A stretch of 64,000 bases of DNA from Nannocystis pusilla (GCF_049060185.1 NZ_JBMEQO010000002.1), one strand, 5' to 3'. Numbered from the stretch's first letter, positions 41,998-59,100 are shown. Notes: generated from the letters alone by a model not told the origin. Program-made: numbers and translations.

Positions 41998-42729
41998 TCA
42001 GGTGCGGCCGGCGGCGGGCTGGCCGGCCAGGCCCTCGGTCGCCCACAGGACGGCGAGGCGGCGCAGCTGGTGCGCGCTGTGGGCCCCGAGCTTGAGCTTG
42101 AGGTTGGACTGGTGGGTCTCGACGGTCTTGATCGAGATCTTGAGCGACTCGGCGATGTTGCGGGTGTCGTGCCCGCGGCCCAGCAGCTCGAACACCTCGA
42201 GCTCGCGGTCGCTGAGGTTCTCGATGCCGGTGCCGGCCCGCGGGCGCGAGACCATGGCGTTCAGCATCGTCTCGGCCAGCTGCTCGCTCACCGCCAGCTC
42301 GCCCTTCAGCGACTTGCGGATGGCGCCGACGATCCGCTCGGCGGGCACGTGCTTCATCAGGTAGCCGTGCGCACCGGCCCGCAGCACGCGCTCGCCGAAC
42401 AGCTGCTCGTCGTGCATCGACAGCACCAGCAGCTTGAGCTCGGGCCAGGCGGCGCGGATCTGCTTGATCAGATCGATGCCGCTGCCGGTCTTGAGCGAGA
42501 GGTCGACGACCGCGAGGTCGACGGGCTTCTCGCGCAGGATCGCCAGGGCGGCCTCGGCGTCCTCGGCCTCACCGACGATCTCCAGGTCGGCCTCGGCTCC
42601 GAGGAGCTGCGACAGGCCGAGGCGGAAGATCGGGTGGTCGTCGACGAGGAGGACCCGCGCCGGCGACGAGGGCTGGTCCGCGGGTCCTGTTCCTTGAGAC
42701 AGGGGAGTGATCGGCGGCTGCACGGTCAT
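41998..42729 (-). CDS. LuxR/NarL-family response regulator (REC + HTH)
   Basis: VLLVDDHPIFRLGL, DLAVVDLSLKTGSGIDL, LVLSMHDE receiver. LSDRELEVFELLGRGHDTRNIAESLKISIKTVETHQSNLKLKLG LuxR HTH. Confidence 0.85.
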   Translation of the reverse strand: MTVQPPITPLSQGTGPADQPSSPARVLLVDDHPIFRLGLSQLLGAEADLEIVGEAEDAEAALAILREKPVDLAVVDLSLKTGSGIDLIKQIRAAWPELKLLVLSMHDEQLFGERVLRAGAHGYLMKHVPAERIVGAIRKSLKGELAVSEQLAETMLNAMVSRPRAGTGIENLSDRELEVFELLGRGHDTRNIAESLKISIKTVETHQSNLKLKLGAHSAHQLRRLAVLWATEGLAGQPAAGRT

Positions 42730-43008
42730 AATGAGCGCTCGTACAATATCCCATAGCCGTGATCGCAGTGTCACGCACCTGGAGTTCGCAGGATGGGTAG
42801 GACGTGAGCACGAAAATTCCCACAAGGCTCGCAGCAGGTTTGGCGGTGCGAGTCACGTTCGCTCGCGACATCGTGCTCACTTGAATTGTGTTCAACAGCA
42901 CACCGTGCGAACCACCGTTCGCCGGCCATCCTCGGGCGATTGGCGCGGATGTGCAGACATTGCGCGACCGCGGGTCACGCACGGCATTGGAACTTAAAGA
43001 CAGGTTCT

Positions 43009-45240
43009 TCAAGCCCTGCGGGCCGCAGCGCTCGCCCACGCACGCAGGGCCGTGATTTCGCCGGCACGACTGCGACTGAGCGGGATGGTCGCGGTGAGCG
43101 CGCGAGCGAGGTCGCGGCGCGCGAGCGGTCGCGACTCGGCGAACGCGTCGAGGCGAGCCTCCACGATCGCGCCCTCGATCTCGGCGCCCGAGAGTCCATC
43201 GGCCGCGCGAACGAGGTCGACGAGGTCGGGCAACGGATCAGCGAGGACCGGGGCGGCGCCCATGTGCGAGCGCGGCGCATGCTCGAGATGGATCTCCGCG
43301 ATGGCAGCGCGTTCGTCCGCATCGGGCAGGTCGACGAAGAAGATCTCGTCGAGACGGCCCCGACGTGTCAGCTCGGGCGGCAGACGCGTGACCTGATTGG
43401 CGGTGGCGACCACGAACACCGGACGTCGGCGCTCCTGCAGCCACGTGAGCAGTCCGCCCAGCACGCGCGCCGCGGTGCCGCCGTCGCTCGCCGGGCCCTC
43501 GCTGCCGGCCAGGCCCTTGTCGAGCTCGTCGATCCACAGCGCGACCGGAGCGATGCGCTCGACGGTCGCGGTGACGCGGCGCAGGTTGGCCTCGCTCTCG
43601 CCGAGCGTGCCGCCGTAGAGCCGGCCCGGCTCCAGCCGCAGGAGGCCGAGGCCGAGCGCGTGGGCGCAGACGCGGGCCGCCAGGCTCTTGCCGCAGCCCT
43701 GCACGCCGACGAGCAGGACGCCGCGCGGGTCGGGGATCGCGGCGGCGCGGGCCTCGGGGCGGAGGGCGAGGGCGCGGCGGGCCAGCCATTGCTTGAGCTG
43801 CGCGAGGCCGCCGAGCATGTCTGAAGGGACAGGTTCGACGCGCTCGAGCAGGCCGCCGCGGCGCAGCAGCTCGGCCTTGCCGGCGCCCAGCTCGGCGAGC
43901 GCGGCGTCGTCGGCGGGGGCATGGGCGGCGCGGCGCAGCAGTCGACGGGCCTGGTGCTCGGACAGGCCGAGCGCGGCGTGGGCGAGCTGCGACGCGCGGC
44001 GGTCGAGCGCGGCGGCAGGGCCGGGCCGGCCGGCGATCCGCAGCTCGTCGACGAGGTCGGCGGCGAGGCCGGTGAGCTCGTCGGCGTCGGGCAGCTCGAG
44101 CTCCAGCAGCTCGAGCTCGGGGATGGCGACGAGCGCAGGCGCGAGGTCGCCGACGACGACGACCGCCGGACCGACGCTGCGCTGCGCGAGCTCGCGGAGG
44201 GCTCGCAGAGCGACGGGCTCGAGCGGCGGTGGATCGAGCAGCACCCACAAGCCGGGATCGGGGTCGCGCAGGAGGCCGCGCAGGAGGTCGAGCAGCGGCT
44301 CGGGCGCGCCGAGGCCGTCGCGCCCGCCGGCGGCGCTCCAGGTGTGGACCGGCCAGTCGAGTTGTTCGCCCGTGTCCTCGCACAGCCGCAGCGCCCGCGC
44401 CTCGTCGACCGCGCGCAGGCCCAGGCCGCGCGCGCCGGCCTGCAGCGCCTCGCGTAGGCGGACGCGCGCGCGCGAACGGGGTGTCCTTCAGGTCATGTCT
44501 CACGGGGCATGTCCCTCGGACCATGTTAACCACGCGGCCAGCAGGTGGCCCTGGGCGGCGACCGACACCGGGCCGTCGTCGGCGAAGCAGAAGCCGTTCA
44601 GCCACAGGCGGGCGCCGCGGAGGCGCGCGAGGCGGCCGTGGAGCAGCGCGAGGTCGGCGGCGCAGGCGCGGGCGAGCTCGGCGCGGGCGCGCGGCGGGAT
44701 CGTGTCTGGCCAAAGGACAGGCGGTAGGCGGGCTTGCCGTCGACGCGGAGGACGTCGAGGCGCAGGGCGCCACTCGGATCGGCGGCGACGAGCTGGGCGC
44801 GCCGCAGCAGGTCGGGGAACGGCCGCGCCCGCGAGCCGCGGAAGTCGAGGGCGAAGAACACCGGCGCCGCGGCGGAGCCGGGCAGGGCGCGGGTGAGGCC
44901 GCGGGCGAGGGCCCGGGCCGCCGCCTCGAGCGCGCCGGGGACCTGCGGCAGGGTGAGCAGGCCGGCCACCGCGGCGGGGCTGCCGGCGGCCGAGAGGGCG
45001 GCGACGACGGCCCGCAGGCGGCCAGGGCGCGCGGCGCCAGGGCCACCAGGCGAGCGACGGCGGGCTCGTCGAACTCGCCGCGGGCGAGCAGGTCGTCGAG
45101 CTCGCGGAGGGCCTCGTCGGCGTCGCCGCCGGCGGGCGGGGTGGGGACCAACCAGAGGTGCGGGCCGGGCAGGTCGCGGGCGCGGTCGAGGGCCGCGAGG
45201 GTGTCCGATGGGACAGGTCCGTCCGAGCGCCGGCCGCTCA
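43009..45240 (-). CDS. AAA+ ATPase (classic-clade AAA domain at the C-terminus; N-terminal roughly 400 aa of unknown function; several frame changes)
   Basis: Walker A LLVGVQGCGKS, Walker B ALWIDELDK, second region of homology VVATANQVTRLPPELTRRGRLDEIFFVDLPD. GTG start 2 bp after the smpB stop. Confidence 0.55.
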
Positions 45241-46414: not shown

Positions 46415-46650
46415 GAGATCGCGCTGGAGATCGCGTCGAATTCGCAGCAGGAGAGGCGTGTGAAGATCATTTCGCCGTCCGATGCAAGCAGGCGGTCATG
46501 CGCACGATCGGCGCCGACGCCGAGAAATTCGCCGGATCTGCGGCGATGCTCGCGATCCACGGCGGAGGAAGACGCACACATCGCCGCTGGGCGTGATCTG
46601 GCGTGCAAATCGCGGCAGTGGGCGGCACGCTAATTCCAAGGAGGCCGCGT

Positions 46651-47178
46651 CATGCTCGCACACGATCTCGGATCTTCAGCGTCGGAACGGTCTTGACGAC
46701 TTCCACCTTCACGGTGAAGCCGGCCGATCTGACTGCGCATGTGGAGTCCAGCTTCTTGGGACAGGTAGTGGGTTGCGGAGAGGAGATGCTGTCGACCGGG
46801 AGCGTGTCCGGCGGCGGCGCTCCGGAGCCGTGGGGTCGAGTTTGTCCGCTGCCGGTCGCGTTCGGTCGGGCGCTGTCGGCCCTGGCCCACAGCGAGCCGT
46901 TCCGCGACGTCGCGCTGACGCTGCGCAGCATCAGCCGCGTGCGGCGCTTCGGAGAGGTGCTGGTGGGGGAGCCGCTGACTGCGATCGCGACGGTGCGCTT
47001 CCGCAGCGGCAGAGTACCGAATGCCACGCACGTGACGCTCGCCGTCGAAGTCCACCGCGAGAGCCAGCGCGGCCGCGTCGGCGCGACCGCGCTGAGCTTC
47101 GAGGTCGGGCTCGAGCTGCGATCGCTGGCGAGCGCCGCTGCAGAGGTGCAGATGGCCGGCGGCGCCGCCGCCGCTTGA
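46651..47178 (+). CDS. Hypothetical protein (175 aa), first gene of the GRAS/partner-switching operon
   Basis: Strong RBS AAGGAGG at 46637-46643, ATG 46651. GC content visibly lower than the neighbouring genes. Confidence 0.5.
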   Translation, partial: HARTRSRIFSVGTVLTTSTFTVKPADLTAHVESSFLGQVVGCGEEMLSTGSVSGGGAPEPWGRVCPLPVAFGRALSALAHSEPFRDVALTLRSISRVRRFGEVLVGEPLTAIATVRFRSGRVPNATHVTLAVEVHRESQRGRVGATALSFEVGLELRSLASAAAEVQMAGGAAAA

Positions 47179-47448
47179 GGCCTGCTTCGGGCCACTTTGG
47201 CCCGGTTCGTCGCGCTGCGTCATGGTTTCGGACCATGTCTCAAGATGCAGTCCATCGCACGGTGTCGCGGTCCTCTGCCGCACGCGACCTGCGCAGTGGC
47301 CCGCGGTCCGGTAGCGCCGCTGGGTGGTCTTTGAGACAGAGGCCGACGGGGCCTGCGCCAGGCTACGCGGCGCGTTTCCGCGCGAGGGCTGAGATAATCT
47401 TCTCGGCCACGATCGGGTGCGCATCAGCTTGCCAAGGCGGATCCCTGT

Positions 47449-48564
47449 GTGACCTTCAGTCTGCGGCGCATGCTCTACGAGGACCGCTACAAGCTGATTT
47501 TGGCCGCGTGCCAGGACATTCGCCGGCATCGCGAGCAGGTCGCCAAGACGGTGATAGCGAGCCAGCTCCTCGACGCCCTCGACGTCGATGTCCCGAGCGA
47601 CGCGCTGTTGTCCCACATCGTCGCCGAGTCGCTGTTGCGACGGATCGACCGCAACCTGCTGTCGGGGCGGAACTTGTACCTGCAAGCCGAGAAGCGGCCG
47701 CAGATCGACCTGTTCACGCTGCTGCAGCGGGCGATCCCGGCGGTGCCGCAGGGCTACGCGCTGGCCAACCAGTACCTCGTGCACGCGATGCGGCAGTCGA
47801 GCACGCCGGCGCTGCTCGAGATCGGGATCGGCAAGGGCCTGCAGATCGTCGCGCTGCTGCGGGCGCTCGCGCGCGACCCCGGCAAGATCGAGCGCCTCCG
47901 CGTGATCGCGCTGGAGCCCAATCGTACCGCCCTGAACGAGGGCGTGGCCGCGATCGACGAGGTCCGCGCCGAGCTGCCGTTCGACATCGAGATCTATCCG
48001 CTGGTCAAGCTGATCGAGGTCTGCGAGGATGCCGACTACGCGCACTTCGAGGCGCTCGCCGAGGGGAGCTTGTCGATCAACGCGGCCTATACGCTGCACC
48101 ACACCACGGGCCCCGACAGCGACGCGCGCACCCGCCTGCTGCGGCGGCTGCGGGGCCTGAGGCCGCGGGTGTTCACGCTGGTGGAGCCGAGCTCGGACCA
48201 CGACACCGAGCACCTGACCCGGCGCATGCACCACTGTTGGCAGCACTTCGCTACTGTGTTCGATCTGGTCGACCGCAGCGACGCGTCCCCCGACGAGAAG
48301 TTCGCCATCAAGGAGGGCTTCTTCGGCCGCGAGGTCCGCGACATCCTCGGCACCAGCGACGCCTTCCGCACCGAGCGTCACGAGACGCTCGAGTCATGGC
48401 TGCTCCGGCTGAAGAAGTCGGGCTTCGTGCCGTACCCGGCGATCGACCTCGACGTCGACCTGCCGGAGTACTGCCGCTCCTCGGTCAGCTCCGGGCTCGT
48501 GCGGCTGTCCTACCGCGGGGTGCCGATCATCGCGGTGTTCGCGTTCGCGGGGGAGGCGGGATGA
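47449..48564 (+). CDS. GRAS-family protein (bacterial homolog; Rossmann-fold methyltransferase-like)
   Basis: LLEIGIGKGLQIVALLRALARDPGKIERLRVIALEP parallels the plant GRAS VHIID-LRITG region. C-terminal ...FFGREVRDILGTSDAFRTERHETLESWLLRLKKSGF parallels the GRAS PFYRE/RERHE-W-GF region. Confidence 0.7.
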   Translation: MTFSLRRMLYEDRYKLILAACQDIRRHREQVAKTVIASQLLDALDVDVPSDALLSHIVAESLLRRIDRNLLSGRNLYLQAEKRPQIDLFTLLQRAIPAVPQGYALANQYLVHAMRQSSTPALLEIGIGKGLQIVALLRALARDPGKIERLRVIALEPNRTALNEGVAAIDEVRAELPFDIEIYPLVKLIEVCEDADYAHFEALAEGSLSINAAYTLHHTTGPDSDARTRLLRRLRGLRPRVFTLVEPSSDHDTEHLTRRMHHCWQHFATVFDLVDRSDASPDEKFAIKEGFFGREVRDILGTSDAFRTERHETLESWLLRLKKSGFVPYPAIDLDVDLPEYCRSSVSSGLVRLSYRGVPIIAVFAFAGEAG

Positions 48565-49103
48565 GCGACGAGAGCGAGCCGAGCGAGCCGGTGGTCCACG
48601 GGGCGCTCATGGGCGGCTTCGCCCAGGCGTGCGTCAACCTCAACATCGTCGCCGGGCGACGAGCCACCGCGCTGCTGGCCGACATCGACATGGGGCGGTG
48701 GTTCCCGCTGTCGAAGTGGATGGAGATCGAGCGGATGGTCGGCGAGTCGTACGCCAACGTCGAGCCGATCCGGCTCAAGCTCGGCATCGAGATGATGACG
48801 CTGTGGTACCACCACGGCCCCGGCAAGGCGCTCATCCACCGCGGCGCCGACTTCCTGCACTTTCAGACCGGCAGCCACGGGATCGCCAGCGTGATCCGGG
48901 GCCCGCGCGAGGTGGTCGGCTCGTTCGACCTCGCCGAGTTCGACTCGGACCGCGGCCACGCCGTGATCCGCTCGTCCACGCCGTTCGACAAGACGATCGA
49001 GCGCGGCGTGCTGATCGGCGGGGTGATGGCGCCCGGCGACCTCTACTACGTCGACGTGACGAACGACGGCGACCCCAACCGGCTCGTGGTGGAGTTCCAC
49101 TGA
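48561..49103 (+). CDS. Hypothetical protein (180 aa), translationally coupled (ATGA) to the GRAS gene
   Basis: Intact ORF with coding-like composition. No family recognised. Confidence 0.55.
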   Translation: MSDESEPSEPVVHGALMGGFAQACVNLNIVAGRRATALLADIDMGRWFPLSKWMEIERMVGESYANVEPIRLKLGIEMMTLWYHHGPGKALIHRGADFLHFQTGSHGIASVIRGPREVVGSFDLAEFDSDRGHAVIRSSTPFDKTIERGVLIGGVMAPGDLYYVDVTNDGDPNRLVVEFH

Positions 49104-49104
49104 G

Positions 49105-50031
49105 ATGACGCTCGACGAGATCCTCGAGGGGCGAGACCCCGACCGCCTGTCCGAGCTGTCGCGCGAGGACATGCGCCGGCTGTTCTGGATGTACAAGGGC
49201 CTGCTCAAGCGGGTCGAGCGCGACACGGCCTACTGGCAGGCGACCAACGACAACCTGCGCACCGCGTACGAGCGGCTCGACGAGCAGGAGCGCGAGCTGG
49301 CCCGCGCCTACCAGACCATCCGCCAGGACCTCGAGATCGCCCAGCAGGTCCAGCACGCGCTGCTGCCGAAGGACCACCCGGAGATGCTCGCGCGCTTCGA
49401 GTTCTCGGTCTACCACAAGCAGATGACCGAGGTCGGCGGCGACTACTACGACTTCTACCGCCTGCGCGACGGCAGCCACGCGATCGGCGTGTTCGACATC
49501 TCGGGCCACGGGGTGTCGGCGGCGCTGATCATGGCCTACCTCAAGGCCCAGCTGGTCCAGACGATGGAGCAGGTGTCGCGCCCGCGCGACATCGTCGAGT
49601 ACCTCAACAACGCGACCGTCGGGTTCCTCCGCGAGGTCCGTCGCTACGCCACCGTCAACTTCGTCGCGTTCGGCGAGCGCACGTTCCGCTACGTGTGCGG
49701 CGGCGGCTACGGGGTGCTGGTCCGCGGCGGCGAGGTCCACACGTTCAACAAGGGCGACCCGTTCATCGGCCTGCGCCGCCGCGCGTACAGCGAGTACGAG
49801 CTGCCCTTCGAGACAGGTGACGTGCTGGCGCTCTACACGGACGGCATGGTCGAGGCGCAGGACAGCGCGGGCGCCGACTACAGCACCCGCCGGCTGCACG
49901 AGCTCGTGCGCACCAACTCGGAGCTGCCGGCCAATCAGATCCTTCAGCGGTGCCTCGACGACTACGGGCAGTTCCGTCGCGTCGACGCCGACGACATCAC
50001 CCTCATCGTGCTGCGGAGGCGGGCGGCGTGA
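49105..50031 (+). CDS. PP2C-type serine phosphatase, SpoIIE/RsbU family
   Basis: VGGDYYDF, GVFDISGHGVSAALIMAYL, ATVNFVAF, LALYTDGMVE. Confidence 0.8.
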   Translation: MTLDEILEGRDPDRLSELSREDMRRLFWMYKGLLKRVERDTAYWQATNDNLRTAYERLDEQERELARAYQTIRQDLEIAQQVQHALLPKDHPEMLARFEFSVYHKQMTEVGGDYYDFYRLRDGSHAIGVFDISGHGVSAALIMAYLKAQLVQTMEQVSRPRDIVEYLNNATVGFLREVRRYATVNFVAFGERTFRYVCGGGYGVLVRGGEVHTFNKGDPFIGLRRRAYSEYELPFETGDVLALYTDGMVEAQDSAGADYSTRRLHELVRTNSELPANQILQRCLDDYGQFRRVDADDITLIVLRRRAA

Positions 50032-50539
50032 GCGAGCACGAGTTCGACGATGAACCGATCACGACCAGCGTCGGCCTGACGCTGACGGTCGCGCCGATGG
50101 GCGACGCGCGTGGCAACCTGGCGACGACCGTCGGCGAGTCGCTGCTGGCAATGCTGACGGTGTTCTACCCGCAGGCGCTGTGCAAGAAGGCCAACGTGGT
50201 CATCACGGAGCTGGTCCAGAACGTGATCGACAACGTCAGCGATCCGGGCAGCCAGATGCGCGTCGATCTGCGCATCGACGGCGACGCGCTGCAGGTCCAG
50301 GTCACCAACAAGGCGACCTTCGAGCAGTACCAGGACGTCAAGGACCGCGTCGAACGGCTGACGACCGCGACGGATCCCAAGCGCCTGTTCGCCGACACGC
50401 TCCGCGCGCGCCGCATGCAGCGGCTGCGCGGGGGCTCGGCCTCATCCGCCTGGTGTCCGAGAACCGCTTCCGCTTGTCCGCGACGTACTCGGGCGAGAAC
50501 TTGACGATGCAGGCGGTGTTTCCTTGCGAGGTGCGCAAT
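50028..50539 (+). CDS. RsbW/SpoIIAB-like GHKL serine kinase (anti-sigma-factor-like); 3' end changes frame
   Basis: GTGA overlap with the phosphatase stop. ITELVQNVIDNV N-box-like; GLGLIRLV G2-box-like in the adjacent frame. Stop expected at the ATGA overlap with the next gene. Confidence 0.5.
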
Positions 50540-50944
50540 GAACGTCCTCACCTACGGCGAGATCATGGACGGCGGCGTCAGTGTGTTCCACTGCGTCGCC
50601 CGCGAGGACGAGGGAACTTCTCCCTCACGTTCTCGGGCGTGGTCCGGATCGACAACCCCTATCGCTATCTGTCGGCCCTGCTGCAGGACCTGCGCGAGAT
50701 CTTGCCGAAACGCGAGATCCAGCGCAGCGTGCTCGACTTCACCGAGCTCGAGTTCTGCAACTCCAACGGCTTCTACGTGATCATGGACATCGTCGAGCTG
50801 GTGTACCTGCTGCTGCCCGGGCCGGTGCTGGTCCGCCGCCTGCAGGAGGACGACTGGCAGCAGGAGACGCTCCCGATCCTGCTCAACCTCGACGAGGAAA
50901 CCATCGCCGCTCGGACGACCTTCGAGGACGTGCGAGAGTTCTGA
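50538..50944 (+). CDS. STAS-like small protein (putative anti-sigma-antagonist-like partner); one frame change near 50615
   Basis: MNVLTYGEIMDGGVSVFHCVAREDEG then NFSLTFSGVVRIDNPYRYLSALLQDLREIL...SVLDFTELEFCNSNGFYVIMDIVE. Confidence 0.4.
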
Positions 50945-50945
50945 C

Positions 50946-52032
50946 ATGGTGGCCATCCTCGAGCTGGTGGAGTCGATCGCGCTGCGCGTCGATGCCGACG
51001 GCAAGGTGACCCCGGCGTCGCCGGCGGCGGCCCGCTGGCTGGCCGCTCGCCCCGGCGCGCCCAGCCTCGGCGCGCTGTTCGGCGCCGCGTCGCCGGCGTT
51101 CCTGCGCAGCCTGGCCGAGAGCAGCGGCAAGGCGGTGCCCGAGAACCCTGGCCCGAAGGACCTGTCGCATGGGACCTGTCCTTGGAGCCATCCGACGGGG
51201 TGCTGGCGGTGGGCGTCGCCATCCGCTCGCCGCGGACGCTGGCGTCGCAGCTGGCGACCGCGACCTTGCTCGACAAGAGCCTGGCGCTGGCGGTGCTGCC
51301 GCGCGAGTCGGCGGCGCCGCTCGGCGAGCGGCTCCAGCCCAAGGCCTACCGCGAGTCGACGGTGATGTTCATCGACGCGGTCCAGTTCTCGCGCCTGGCC
51401 GCCCGCGTCGACCCGGTCACCTGCCTCAAGCAGCTCGACTTCTTCTTCTCGGCCTTCGACCAGATCACCTCGGCGTTCGGCGTCGAGAAGCTGCGCACCG
51501 CCGGCGACACGTACGTGGCGGTCTCGGGCATCCCCACCGCCGCCTGTCGCACGCCGTCGACGCGACGTTCGCCGCGTTGCGCTGCGCCCAGGTGGTGGCG
51601 TCGGGGCTGACGCCGATCGTCGACGAGTGGGACTGGAGCTTCCGCATCGGCCTCCACTCGGGCCCCTGCATCTCCGGCGTGCTCGGCTCGAAGAAGCCGG
51701 TCTACGACCTGTGGGGCGACACGGTCAGCGTCGCCAGCCACGTCGAGCGCGTCGGCCAGCCCGATTCGGTGTGCGTGTCGGGGGCGGTCCGTCAGCTCAT
51801 CGAGCCGTTCTTCTCGCTCGAGTTCATGCAGACGACGGTGACCCGCAGCGTCGGCGAGATCGAGGTGTTCGCGGTCCGCGGGCTGCTCCCCGAGCTGCAG
51901 GCCGACGACCAGGCGATGGTCGCCAACGCCGAGTTCACGGCCCGCTACGAGTCGCGCTTCGCGTCGCCGTGCCCGACCGCCGCCCAGGAGGCGCTCGGGG
52001 TCGAGCTCGGCCAGGGCCTCGACGAGTTCTGA
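50946..52032 (+). CDS. Class III adenylate/guanylate cyclase with N-terminal about 130-aa sensor region (interrupted by a 14-bp insertion at about 51165 and a second frame change about 51550)
   Basis: VMFIDAVQFSRLA, KLRTAGDTYVAVSGIP, RIGLHSGPCISGVLGSKKPVYDLWGDTVSVASHVE. Confidence 0.8.
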
Positions 52033-56115: not shown

Positions 56116-59100
56116 TCAGGCCGGGTGACGCTCGAGCCAGGCGTCGACCTCGGCCTGGTAGTGCTTCGCCCCTGCTTTCGAAACAGGGTCTGCGCCGAGA
56201 CAGCGAGGGTGCGTGCCTGTGCGCGATCTCCGCGAGAGTCCCAGAGGACCTGTGCGAGCTGGAATTCGGCCTGGGCGCGCTGGATGGGGGCGTTGCGCGG
56301 ATCGAGCAAGGAAATGCTGCGCTCGAGATCCCGGCGTGCGTCGTCGAGGCGACGTTGCGACTGCCGCACCCTGGCGCGAGGGGTCAGGACCTCGGACATC
56401 CACAGCGAGTCGCCGCCGTAGTTGCGCTCGATCGCCGCGACGGCGGCGTCGGCCTCGCGCTCGGCCGCCGACAGGTCGCCGAGCCCCGCGAGCGCGACCC
56501 CGGATCGCCCGGCTGACGGCGGTATAGAGGTTGTCCTCGCCGAGCACCGAGGCGGAGAGGGGCAGGGCCTTGTCGGTGTGGTCGCGGGCCGCGGCGTAGT
56601 TGTCGCGGGCGAGCTCGATCTGCGCCAGAGCGAGGTGGGCCAGCACGGTGCCCTGGGGGTCGGGGCTCTGCGCGGCGCTCCAGATGGCGAGCGCGCGGGT
56701 GGCGTGCTGCTCGGCCAGTCCGAGCTCGCCGCGCACCTGCTGGACCGAGGCGAGGCGCTCGAGCATGGCGGCCACGCGGGTGCTCAGCGGGCCGAAGTTG
56801 TGCTCCCAGATCGCCCGCGCTTCCTCGTAGGCGTCGAGGGCCGCGCCGAAGTCGCCGCGCTGGGCGGCGATGTCGGCCAGCGCCGACAGCGGGTACGCGA
56901 GCCGCTCGTGACGCGGCGGCAGGGCGGCGCGGAGGATCGTCAACGCGGCCCGCTGGTGCTGCTCGGCGGTGTCGAAGTCGCCGCGCAGGGTGGCGACGTT
57001 GCCGAGGTCGCCCAGGGAAAAGGCGTTGCTCGGGTGACCCTCGCCGTAGATGTCGCGGCGCAGGGCCAGGAGGTCCTCGAAGATGATCTGCGCCGGCTCG
57101 AGCTGACCGAGGCTGAGGTGGACGTTGGCGAGGTTCTGGCGCGTGGTGACGGAGGCGATCGAGCGCTCGGGCAGGTCGGCGAGCGAGCGGCGGTAGTGGT
57201 CGATGGCGGTGCCGTACTCGCGGCGGGCTTCGGCGATCTGGCCGCGGTGGAACTCGAGGTCGCCGCCGAGGCGGGCGGGCGACCGAGGCGCTCGTAGAGT
57301 GCCTCGGCGTGGCGCAGCCACGGCTGGGCGTCGTCGGGGTGGCCGAGGGTCTGCGCGAGGCGGCCGGCGAAGCCGCTGGCTGTCTCGAAGGCCAGGCGGT
57401 CGTGGCCGGCGGCGAGCGCCTCCCAGTAGGCGTCGCCGTACACGCGGACGCCGTCGTCGTACTTGCTGGCGACGAACAGCTGGTCGGCGAGCTGCGCCAA
57501 CACCTCGGCGCGCAGCGGGCGGTAGCCGAGGTCGCGCGAGCGCTGCTCGGCGGCCTCGAGCAGGTTGAGACCGGCGCCGGGGTGCCCGGCCGCCGCCTCG
57601 GCGCTGGCGAGCGAGAGCTGGTCGCGCAGGCCTTGCACGGTCTCGACGAGCGCGGGCGCGGGCGGGGCGACGTCGGCGCGGAGGGCGTCGAGGTCGGCGC
57701 AGCGGGCCGGGGCGGCAAGGCCTCGACTGCGTCGTGGGCGTGCGCGACTGCGTCGGCGTCGGCCCCGGCGAGCACGCCGAGCAGGGCGTCGAGCTCGTGG
57801 CGGCGATCCTCGAGGCAGTGCATGCGCCTGTCCAAAGGTCATGTGATTGTTCGCCGCGGATGTTGGCCGCCGCGCACGCGTCGGTGTGGCCGGCGATCCA
57901 CGCCTCGGCCCAGGCGTCGACGCGCGCGCCGGCGCGGGCGGCCGCGTCGGGGGCGTAAGGCAGGCCGGTGGCCGCGAAGGCGGCGTCGAGGGCGGCGCGT
58001 CGCTCGGGGTTCCACGTCGGCGCGAGCGCCTCGGCGGCGCCGGTACACAGCGCGGGCGCTTCGCCGGCGAGGGCGAAGGCGACGGCGCCGGCGACCAGCA
58101 GCGCGCCGCCGCCGGCGAGGGCCCAGCGCCTGCGGTCGCGCCGCAGCGGCCGCTCGAGCGCGTCGAGCAGCGCCTGCATCGAAGGCCACCTGTCCCCGGG
58201 TTCAGCCGCGAGGCCGCGGAGGATGGCGCGGTGGATCGCCGGCGGGACCTTGGCGGGGCGCCGCGGCGGCTCGACGCGACCGCGGGCCTTGGCCGCCTCG
58301 AGCGCGAACAGGTTGTCGCCGCTGAACGGGCGGTTGCCGTAGAGGCCCTCGTAGAGCGCGACGCAGAAGCTGAACTGATCGGCGCGCTCGTCGATCGCGG
58401 CGCCGCCCCGTTGCTCCGGGGCCATGTAGGCCGGCGTGCCGACGAGGGTGCCGACGCGGGTGAGCGGGCCGGACACCAGCGACGAGGACAGCGGATCGAT
58501 CGGGGCGCCGGGGTCGGGCGAGGCGGCGGGGCTGGTCGGCTCGACCTCGCCGGCGGGCCGCGCCAGGCCGAAGTCGAACACGCAGATCCGACCTGTCTCT
58601 CCGACCAGGACGTTGCCGGGTTTGAAGTCGCGGTGGATGATGCCGACGGCGTGCGCAGCGACCAGGCCGCGGCCGGCGGCGAGGAACACGTCGAGGACCT
58701 CGCGCACGCCGCGGACGCGGTCGTCGAGCCACTGGGCGAGGGTGATGCCGGGGACGTACTCCATCACCAGGAACACGCCGGCGGCCTGCGGTATCCTGTC
58801 CTTCGGGACAGGCTCCGTGCGGTGCGGGCCGATCCGCATGGTGGTGAGGGCGTCGGCGTCGTAGCTGCCGACGTCGTGGACCGCGACGACGTTGCCGTGC
58901 GACAGCCGGGCCAACGCCTGGGCCTCGCGCAGCAGGCGGGCGTGCGCGGCCTGGGCCGGGCCGTCGCCGGGGCCACGCGCAGCAGCTTGATCGCGACCTT
59001 GCGATCGAGGCTGGGATCGTAGGCGAGGTAGACGACTCCCATGCCGCCGGCGCCGAGGCGACGCACGAGGACGTAACGGGTGAGCTGAAGCGCGCGCTCC

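Follow-up and report, generated by a model that had tools for sequence, protein, structure and literature searches.

The 64,000-nucleotide (nt) stretch of Nannocystis pusilla DNA analyzed here, hereafter the window, carries seven coding regions on the + strand between 46652 and 52032, the second of which encodes a GRAS-family protein. Plant GRAS proteins such as DELLA, SCARECROW and NSP1/2 are central regulators; the bacterial members are, to our knowledge, only predicted methyltransferases. We find that the GRAS gene opens a five-gene core with one order and one strand in every locus long enough to be judged, in Myxococcota as well as Spirochaetota, and we consider the window locus to be, probably, the N. 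pusilla copy of a conserved signaling operon.

Gene order at the locus and across genomes

The locus, within a window of ~71% guanine plus cytosine (GC), contains the following features and junctions:

46638..46644, + strand: AAGGAGG Shine-Dalgarno-like motif, 7 nt 5' of the ATG of gene 1 (46652), read directly
46652..47178, + strand: gene 1, hypothetical protein of 175 amino acids (aa), 1-nt deletion at 46676
47449..48564, + strand: GRAS-family protein, 371 aa, GTG start, intact
48561..49103, + strand: 180-aa protein, predicted H-NOX/V4R-like, intact, its start overlapping the GRAS stop (ATGA)
49105..50031, + strand: PP2C phosphatase of the SpoIIE/RsbU type, 308 aa, intact
50028..50541, + strand: kinase-like GHKL-fold protein, 171 aa once repaired, deletions at ~50431 and ~50524
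50538..50944, + strand: STAS-fold SiaC-like protein, 135 aa, deletion at ~50612
50946..52032, + strand: class III nucleotide cyclase, 362 aa once repaired, deletions at ~51146 and ~51533
48561-48564: ATGA junction between the GRAS and 180-aa genes
49101-49107: TGAgATG junction between the 180-aa and PP2C genes
50028-50031: GTGA junction between the PP2C and kinase-like genes
50538-50541: ATGA junction between the kinase-like and 135-aa genes
50942-50948: TGAcATG junction between the 135-aa and cyclase genes

The initial annotation of this DNA had read the seven genes as one tightly coupled operon, and the same-strand order, the five overlapping or abutting junctions and the ribosome-binding site on the first gene are all located in the sequence as it described them. 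The genes are however not all open reading frames (ORFs), since four of the seven are frameshifted by six single-nucleotide deletions that had been missed, and the TGA of the second ATGA junction falls in the kinase-like frame only once both deletions of that gene are repaired. Nor does gene 1 belong to the operon, a placement ruled out by the 270-nt gap that separates it from the GRAS gene and by its absence from this position outside close Nannocystis relatives; its product has no match in Pfam or NCBIfam. Scans for promoters and terminators found nothing, as expected at 70% GC.

To place the remaining genes in a wider context, a GRAS-profile scan of one genome per species yielded 58 loci, stemming from Nannocystis species, other metagenome-assembled genomes (MAGs) of Myxococcota and ~20 MAGs of Spirochaetota, with a local GC content of 0.33 to 0.69. 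In 46 of 46 loci long enough, the genes for the GRAS, 180-aa, PP2C, kinase-like and 135-aa proteins follow each other in a single order on a single strand, with approximate gaps between adjacent matches that have medians of 5-38 nt. The order first read from the window is hence shared across two phyla, so that the refuting condition named in the initial annotation, an order kept in no relative, does not apply, and its recurrence in all 46 loci places the arrangement far beyond chance. Half of the total set (29/58) combines the five-gene core with a cyclase, 17 loci have the core with an unrelated gene downstream, 11 are cut by a contig end and are consistent as far as visible, and a single locus (L053) has no 180-aa gene after GRAS.

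The class III cyclase gene thus directly follows the 135-aa gene in about two thirds (29/46) of the complete loci, where it starts 4-209 nt past the 135-aa match (median ~29 nt), always on the same strand and in both phyla. Downstream in the cyclase-less loci are aldehyde dehydrogenase-like, aminotransferase-like, ABC ATPase or PilT-like ATPase genes, or a Ser/Thr kinase gene and then a second GRAS paralogue.

The Ser/Thr protein kinase replaces the cyclase after the 135-aa gene in three myxobacterial MAGs (L029, 12655-14871; L045, 9525-12829; L055, 12680-16035), and in L045 and L055 the gene that comes next is a divergent GRAS paralogue of 34-35% identity, a hint that the core may be combined with other outputs or inputs. 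The assembly of N. exedens DSM 71 contains the locus twice near contig ends, as L008 on utg4 and as L007 on utg0, with a cyclase frame break in one copy; the pair is probably an assembly duplicate.

No sigma factor gene adjoins the module, as the initial annotation had also stated, and the neighbors are instead genes for ComF, SmpB, an AAA ATPase, a DUF218 protein and a peptidase-S9-like protein. The same six genes with an smpB/comF flank are present on two metagenome contigs. Further upstream, the window has only ~350 nt (42702-43054) where the metagenome relatives L001 (2006-3337) and L004 (1627-2970) carry a PilJ-HisKA_3-HATPase_c sensor kinase gene between a LuxR-type response regulator and the AAA ATPase, and tblastn gave no match to this kinase in the window.

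Reading-frame breaks in the window copy

In the window as given, the GRAS, 180-aa and PP2C genes are the only intact ORFs, with two of the six deletions in the kinase-like gene, two in the cyclase gene and one each in gene 1 and the 135-aa gene, at the sites listed above. The calls derive from frame plots of GC content at third codon positions (GC3), tblastn with intact orthologues and DNA alignments, all of which agree. An ORF listing and the GC3 frame plot reveal that between 50.4 and 51.6 kb the coding frame shifts repeatedly with no intervening stop codons, and the frame of the kinase-like gene changes from 0 to 2 to 1. Using the intact proteins of the 78%-identical metagenome relative L004 as tblastn queries, the kinase-like gene and the 135-aa gene were each recovered in two frames and the cyclase gene in three, and frame breaks were also detected in the upstream minus-strand comF gene and in a gene for a 433-aa hypothetical protein.

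The same picture emerged each time when the DNA was aligned to two relatives and when it was compared with four Nannocystis genomes by blastn. The comparison with the four genomes exposed the deletion at 46676 in gene 1 as well as further window-specific single-base losses nearby, at 44712 and ~45025 in the 433-aa hypothetical gene (minus strand), at ~46308 in the comF-like gene (minus strand), and at 47226, 47443, 55096 and 55730. Over the ~17 kb compared, there are thirteen window-specific 1-nt deletions versus one consistent 1-nt insertion. The phenomenon is not local, as GC3-based segmentation detected ~28 frame changes without a stop codon across the 64 kb, about one per 2-3 kb, with examples at 1748, 2373, 6207, 14945, 17137, 21355, 25009, 30865, 44705, 45018, 53575, 56499-58966, 60267 and 61511.

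When a single N is inserted at every one of the six sites, the products are full-length again and reach the expected stops. Compared with N. pusilla Na p29, these repaired products display 96-100% aa identity on either side of every break (96.6% at the DNA level), and repaired gene 1 yields a 175-aa product that is 100% identical over residues 10-175. The same genes are all intact in six related Nannocystis genomes, while the NCBI annotation of the source genome has a 101-aa truncated version of the 135-aa protein (P0256). Considering the ~28 breaks in 64 kb and the high identity on both flanks, the most likely cause of the frame breaks is erroneous loss of bases in the assembly. ORF-based readings of the window are consequently unreliable, and homology-guided repair is needed.

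The encoded proteins

Five of the six domain assignments in the initial annotation are real, and those of the GRAS protein, the PP2C phosphatase and the class III cyclase stand as they were made. The GRAS protein agrees in 100% of its residues with an NCBI entry, 'GRAS family protein [Nannocystis pusilla]', and matches Pfam GRAS (PF03514) at 1.9e-35, with 122.9 bits against a cut-off of 27 over profile positions 37-328 of 374. The family profile in turn matches solved plant DELLA, SCARECROW and SCL structures at 7e-29 to 1e-19 (DELLA RGA 7.4e-29, SCARECROW 1e-20). While the GRAS domain is therefore clearly shared with the plant proteins, by Pfam as well as by profile comparison with solved plant structures, the bacterial form is a stand-alone 371-aa domain without the N-terminal regulatory region, it is located in a signaling operon, and it has a glycine motif for binding of S-adenosylmethionine (SAM) that is invariant in the bacterial set.

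This motif, the Rossmann methyltransferase motif I, reads LLEIGIGKG, and G126, G128 and G130 are invariant in 24 homologues, in which the acidic D/E156 after strand 2 is nearly invariant and many polar residues are invariant as well. Both sequence hallmarks of a Rossmann-fold SAM-dependent methyltransferase, the glycine-rich motif I and the acidic residue following strand 2, are present, and the motif conservation would fit an active SAM-dependent enzyme. Bacterial GRAS proteins were reportedly predicted by Zhang, Iyer and Aravind in 2012 to be Rossmann-fold methyltransferases acting on small molecules, and the mention of this prediction in the initial annotation matches how later papers cite that work.

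The 180-aa protein, listed as unknown in the initial annotation, is instead predicted to adopt an H-NOX/V4R-like sensor fold. It has only ~90 unnamed homologues and no match in Pfam, the Pfam H-NOX family included, or in NCBIfam, and its sequence identity to H-NOX proteins is 6-11%. Bacterial H-NOX sensors are encoded beside kinases or cyclases, and an H-NOX domain is present in the beta-1 subunit of animal soluble guanylate cyclase. In contrast to such sensors, the position of the 180-aa protein that corresponds to the helix histidine, His100, is not conserved, being occupied by H, E, Q, Y, R, T or S among the homologues. Binding of haem or nitric oxide (NO) is thus unlikely, and we rejected haem-based NO sensing as a function; judging from the predicted structure, we regard the protein as belonging to the H-NOX/V4R ligand-binding fold but carrying no haem. 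Across 32 homologues the Cys24 of the motif QACxNL never varies, and it represents a candidate ligand-contact or redox residue.

The PP2C phosphatase matches Pfam SpoIIE (PF07228) at 7.8e-28 over residues 122-306, with 98.2 bits against a cut-off of 25, and all four metal-site motifs (GGDYYD, DISGHG, TDG and DDIT) are found in the translation. The catalytic domain is preceded by a coiled-coil N-terminal region of ~110 aa. Its best NCBIfam match is the SiaA phosphatase domain (1e-20), yet the protein is not SiaA according to NF038263, of which only the model part 351-656 is matched, at 73.8 bits versus an equivalog cut-off of 700 bits.

For the following two proteins, the RsbW-like and STAS-like assignments are supported at the level of fold or superfamily, although SiaB/slr1658 and SiaC/slr1659 are closer than RsbW and RsbV, respectively, and HATPase_c_2 remains below threshold. 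Among 25 orthologues of the kinase-like protein, 24 match the slr1658 superfamily (NF047703, best 2.2e-13) and 24 match DUF6272 (Pfam, best 5.6e-08), followed by the SiaB family kinase (NF038262; 16 orthologues, best 1.3e-05), HATPase_c_2 (PF13581; 10 at E up to 0.05, best 8.8e-06) and RsbW (NCBIfam; 8, best 0.00016), with the slr1658 and SiaB scores expressing relatedness, not membership. As for the GHKL motifs, E61, N65 and GGLG (135-138) are invariant in the orthologue alignment. A search of Protein Data Bank (PDB) sequences with the family profile returned noise only, topped by antibody light chains and with RsbW at an E-value of 1.6.

The 135-aa protein has a STAS/SpoIIAA-like fold in a fold search, with SiaC as the closest solved structure. 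All 25 orthologues match the slr1659 superfamily (NF047705), 10 match Pfam SiaC (PF09345; best 9.7e-05) and 8 match STAS_2, and the Na p29 orthologue is below the PF09345 gathering threshold (12.3 versus 24.5 bits). The family profile yielded weak SpoIIAA matches only among PDB sequences (E 0.05). Ser76, in the motif FCNSNGFY, opens helix 76-92 and corresponds in position to SiaC T68. None of the 25 orthologues taken from the loci deviates from Ser here, and in another set of 30 the conservation is at least 90%, making the residue a candidate phospho-acceptor.

Finally, the match of the window cyclase to Pfam Guanylate_cyc (PF00211) is split over two frames (6.5e-14 and 5e-17; 52.4 and 62.5 bits), whereas the intact Na p29 orthologue has a single match at 3.3e-36 (125 bits). 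All six canonical adenylate cyclase residues, namely two metal-binding Asp, the substrate-specifying Lys and Asp, and the transition-state Asn and Arg, are present in the spirochaete and most non-Nannocystis myxobacterial orthologues. The N-terminal ~130 aa of the cyclase (50946-51340) have no family match and are missing from the short cyclases (~265-280 aa) of the spirochaete loci L019, L031, L032, L036, L043 and L056; the region may act in docking or as a PAS-like sensor.

A proposed signaling route and its alternatives

The closest known system is SiaABCD of P. aeruginosa, where the PP2C phosphatase SiaA and the kinase SiaB determine how far SiaC is phosphorylated at T68, and the diguanylate cyclase SiaD is activated through binding of SiaC (PMC7647112, PMC8457831). 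The order PP2C-kinase-phosphoprotein-cyclase is matched in 29 of the 46 loci. Differences are nevertheless evident: the output enzyme is a class III cyclase (PF00211) rather than a GGDEF diguanylate cyclase, the 308-aa PP2C lacks the membrane-spanning and HAMP segments that SiaA is described to have, the switch is preceded by two further conserved genes (GRAS and H-NOX-like), and all matches to Sia family models are below the curated cut-offs. The initial annotation considered the architecture not to have been described; however, as the SiaABCD partner switch already controls a nucleotide cyclase in place of a sigma factor, the module is a SiaABCD variant and not an architecture without precedent. 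A full-text search found no paper linking bacterial GRAS to a partner switch, a PP2C or a cyclase, with Zhang et al. 2012 falling outside this search and possibly already showing the neighborhood.

The kinase-like/135-aa pair is closer to SiaB/SiaC and to slr1658/slr1659 than to RsbW/RsbV. The slr1658 and slr1659 superfamilies are the best sequence-family matches of the two proteins, and the genes are adjacent here as in the Synechocystis slr1657-slr1660 cluster, although at 25-36 bits the scores do not come near the cut-offs of 100 bits. The Synechocystis genes are known from a mutant phenotype only, with poor recovery from iron limitation and overexpression of pgr5 (PMC7555055), and for that locus, compared by description only, a link to GRAS or a cyclase is not reported. 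With RsbU/RsbW/RsbV and SpoIIE/SpoIIAB/SpoIIAA of Bacillus, the module has in common a SpoIIE/RsbU-type PP2C, a kinase-like protein of GHKL fold and a STAS-fold protein whose helix 2 carries a conserved Ser at its N-terminus. The missing sigma factor and the sub-threshold model scores nonetheless set it apart from a classical RsbW/RsbV module.

Aggregating these observations, we consider it probable that the locus is the N. pusilla copy of a conserved signaling operon in which GRAS and H-NOX/V4R-like inputs act on a SiaABC-type phospho-switch with a class III cyclase as output, and in which the six deletions are artefacts. By analogy with SiaABCD and other partner switches, the kinase-like protein would phosphorylate Ser76 of the 135-aa protein and the PP2C would strip the phosphate again, with the unphosphorylated form binding the cyclase and turning it on, as SiaC does with SiaD. 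The GRAS/H-NOX-like pair would bind or methylate a small, probably hydrophobic molecule and thereby shift the balance between kinase and phosphatase, the likely route of the signal being the N-terminal coiled coil of the PP2C. For a canonical cyclase, the output would be cyclic AMP (cAMP), given the Lys/Asp pair specifying ATP in the spirochaete and most non-Nannocystis myxobacterial orthologues. A more specific version, that GRAS and its obligate H-NOX-like partner constitute a two-protein receptor (or a receptor and a modifier) for a small hydrophobic signal that drives the SiaABC-like switch with cAMP output through the class III cyclase, is put forward tentatively, as a possibility that we hold to be less likely than its opposite.

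Several observations weigh against this signaling route. At the input end, the link of the GRAS and H-NOX-like proteins to the switch is inferred from adjacency. Within the switch, the Na p29 kinase-like orthologue is below every curated family cut-off (slr1658, 35.6 versus 100 bits; HATPase_c_2, 16.8 versus 27.4 bits) and has no match to the SiaB family model at E up to 0.05, a G1 box (DxGxG) is not evident in the alignment between the N box and GGLG, and Foldseek does not separate SiaC from SpoIIAA for the 135-aa protein. At the output end, the 135-aa gene is not followed by a cyclase in 17 of the 46 complete loci, and there the switch must have another target. Moreover, the Nannocystis cyclases, including that of the window, read RTAGD and TVSVASH where the spirochaete and other myxobacterial orthologues have KTIGD and SVNIA(S/A)R, equivalent to Lys to Arg, Asn to Ser and Arg to His exchanges at canonical catalytic positions, while both metal Asp and the specificity Asp are kept. 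With the transition-state Asn and Arg lost, the Nannocystis cyclase may have low activity or serve just as a binding partner. Considering the partial occurrence of the cyclase and the loss of three catalytic residues, the case for a cyclic nucleotide as output, as suggested in the initial annotation, is weaker for Nannocystis than for its spirochaete relatives. Lastly, the judgment that the deletions are most probably errors draws on genomes of other strains, none of them exactly this strain.

The same two findings, the 17 loci without a cyclase, with unrelated genes downstream, and the degenerate Nannocystis enzyme, are the reason to retain the alternative that the phospho-switch is real and the cyclase is not its target. 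The 135-aa or kinase-like protein would then act on a partner encoded elsewhere, for instance a transcription factor, a sigma factor or some other enzyme, and the cyclase would be an independent, co-transcribed sensor-enzyme, congruent with the N-terminal region of ~130 aa, a possible sensor, that many cyclase copies possess and with the effect of the Synechocystis slr1658 relative on gene expression, where pgr5 is overexpressed in the mutant (PMC7555055). Yet the short distance and shared strand of the cyclase in two phyla, a gene order that mirrors siaABCD and the lack of any sigma factor or DNA-binding gene conserved beside the module all speak for the cyclase as target, and we judge the alternative to be unlikely, though with an appreciable chance of being correct.

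It is improbable that the deletions are real, such that gene 1 and the kinase-like, 135-aa and cyclase genes are pseudogenes of a decaying operon in this strain. Five of the deletions do fall inside 1.1 kb (50431-51533), denser than the window mean of about one per 2.3 kb, the truncated 101-aa product is carried in the NCBI annotation of the source genome, and the Nannocystis cyclase has already lost catalytic residues. The breaks are however spread over the whole window, comF and other conserved genes included, and nearly all of them are deletions, an error signature. Past the breaks there are no stop codons and no other decay, with GC3 of at least 0.9, and the near-identity to Na p29 on both flanks and the intact genes in six related genomes also speak against decay.

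Most improbable is that the cluster is mainly metabolic, with the GRAS methyltransferase and the H-NOX/V4R-like protein making or modifying a small molecule and the phospho-switch regulating only that enzyme, for although the SAM-binding motif and the many invariant polar residues of GRAS suggest catalysis, in line with the small-molecule methylase prediction attributed to Zhang et al. 2012 by others, no other biosynthetic genes are conserved around the module, four of its six genes belong to signaling families, and H-NOX and V4R domains are typically sensors.

The evidence for the signaling operon is purely comparative, and the window copy appears both damaged by assembly errors and catalytically atypical. 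Even so, bacterial GRAS is placed in a fixed signaling context across two phyla, beside a predicted H-NOX-like sensor fold, and the module, comprising six small soluble proteins, offers the first concrete, testable context for a bacterial GRAS protein. The principle of SiaABCD, activation of a nucleotide cyclase by a phospho-switch protein, would extend from cyclic di-GMP to cAMP and class III cyclases. If the receptor version is true, a bacterial GRAS domain would for the first time have a known functional context and a class III cyclase would for the first time be known to be controlled by a partner switch, and this would suggest that GRAS domains were small-molecule-coupled signaling parts before plants acquired them.

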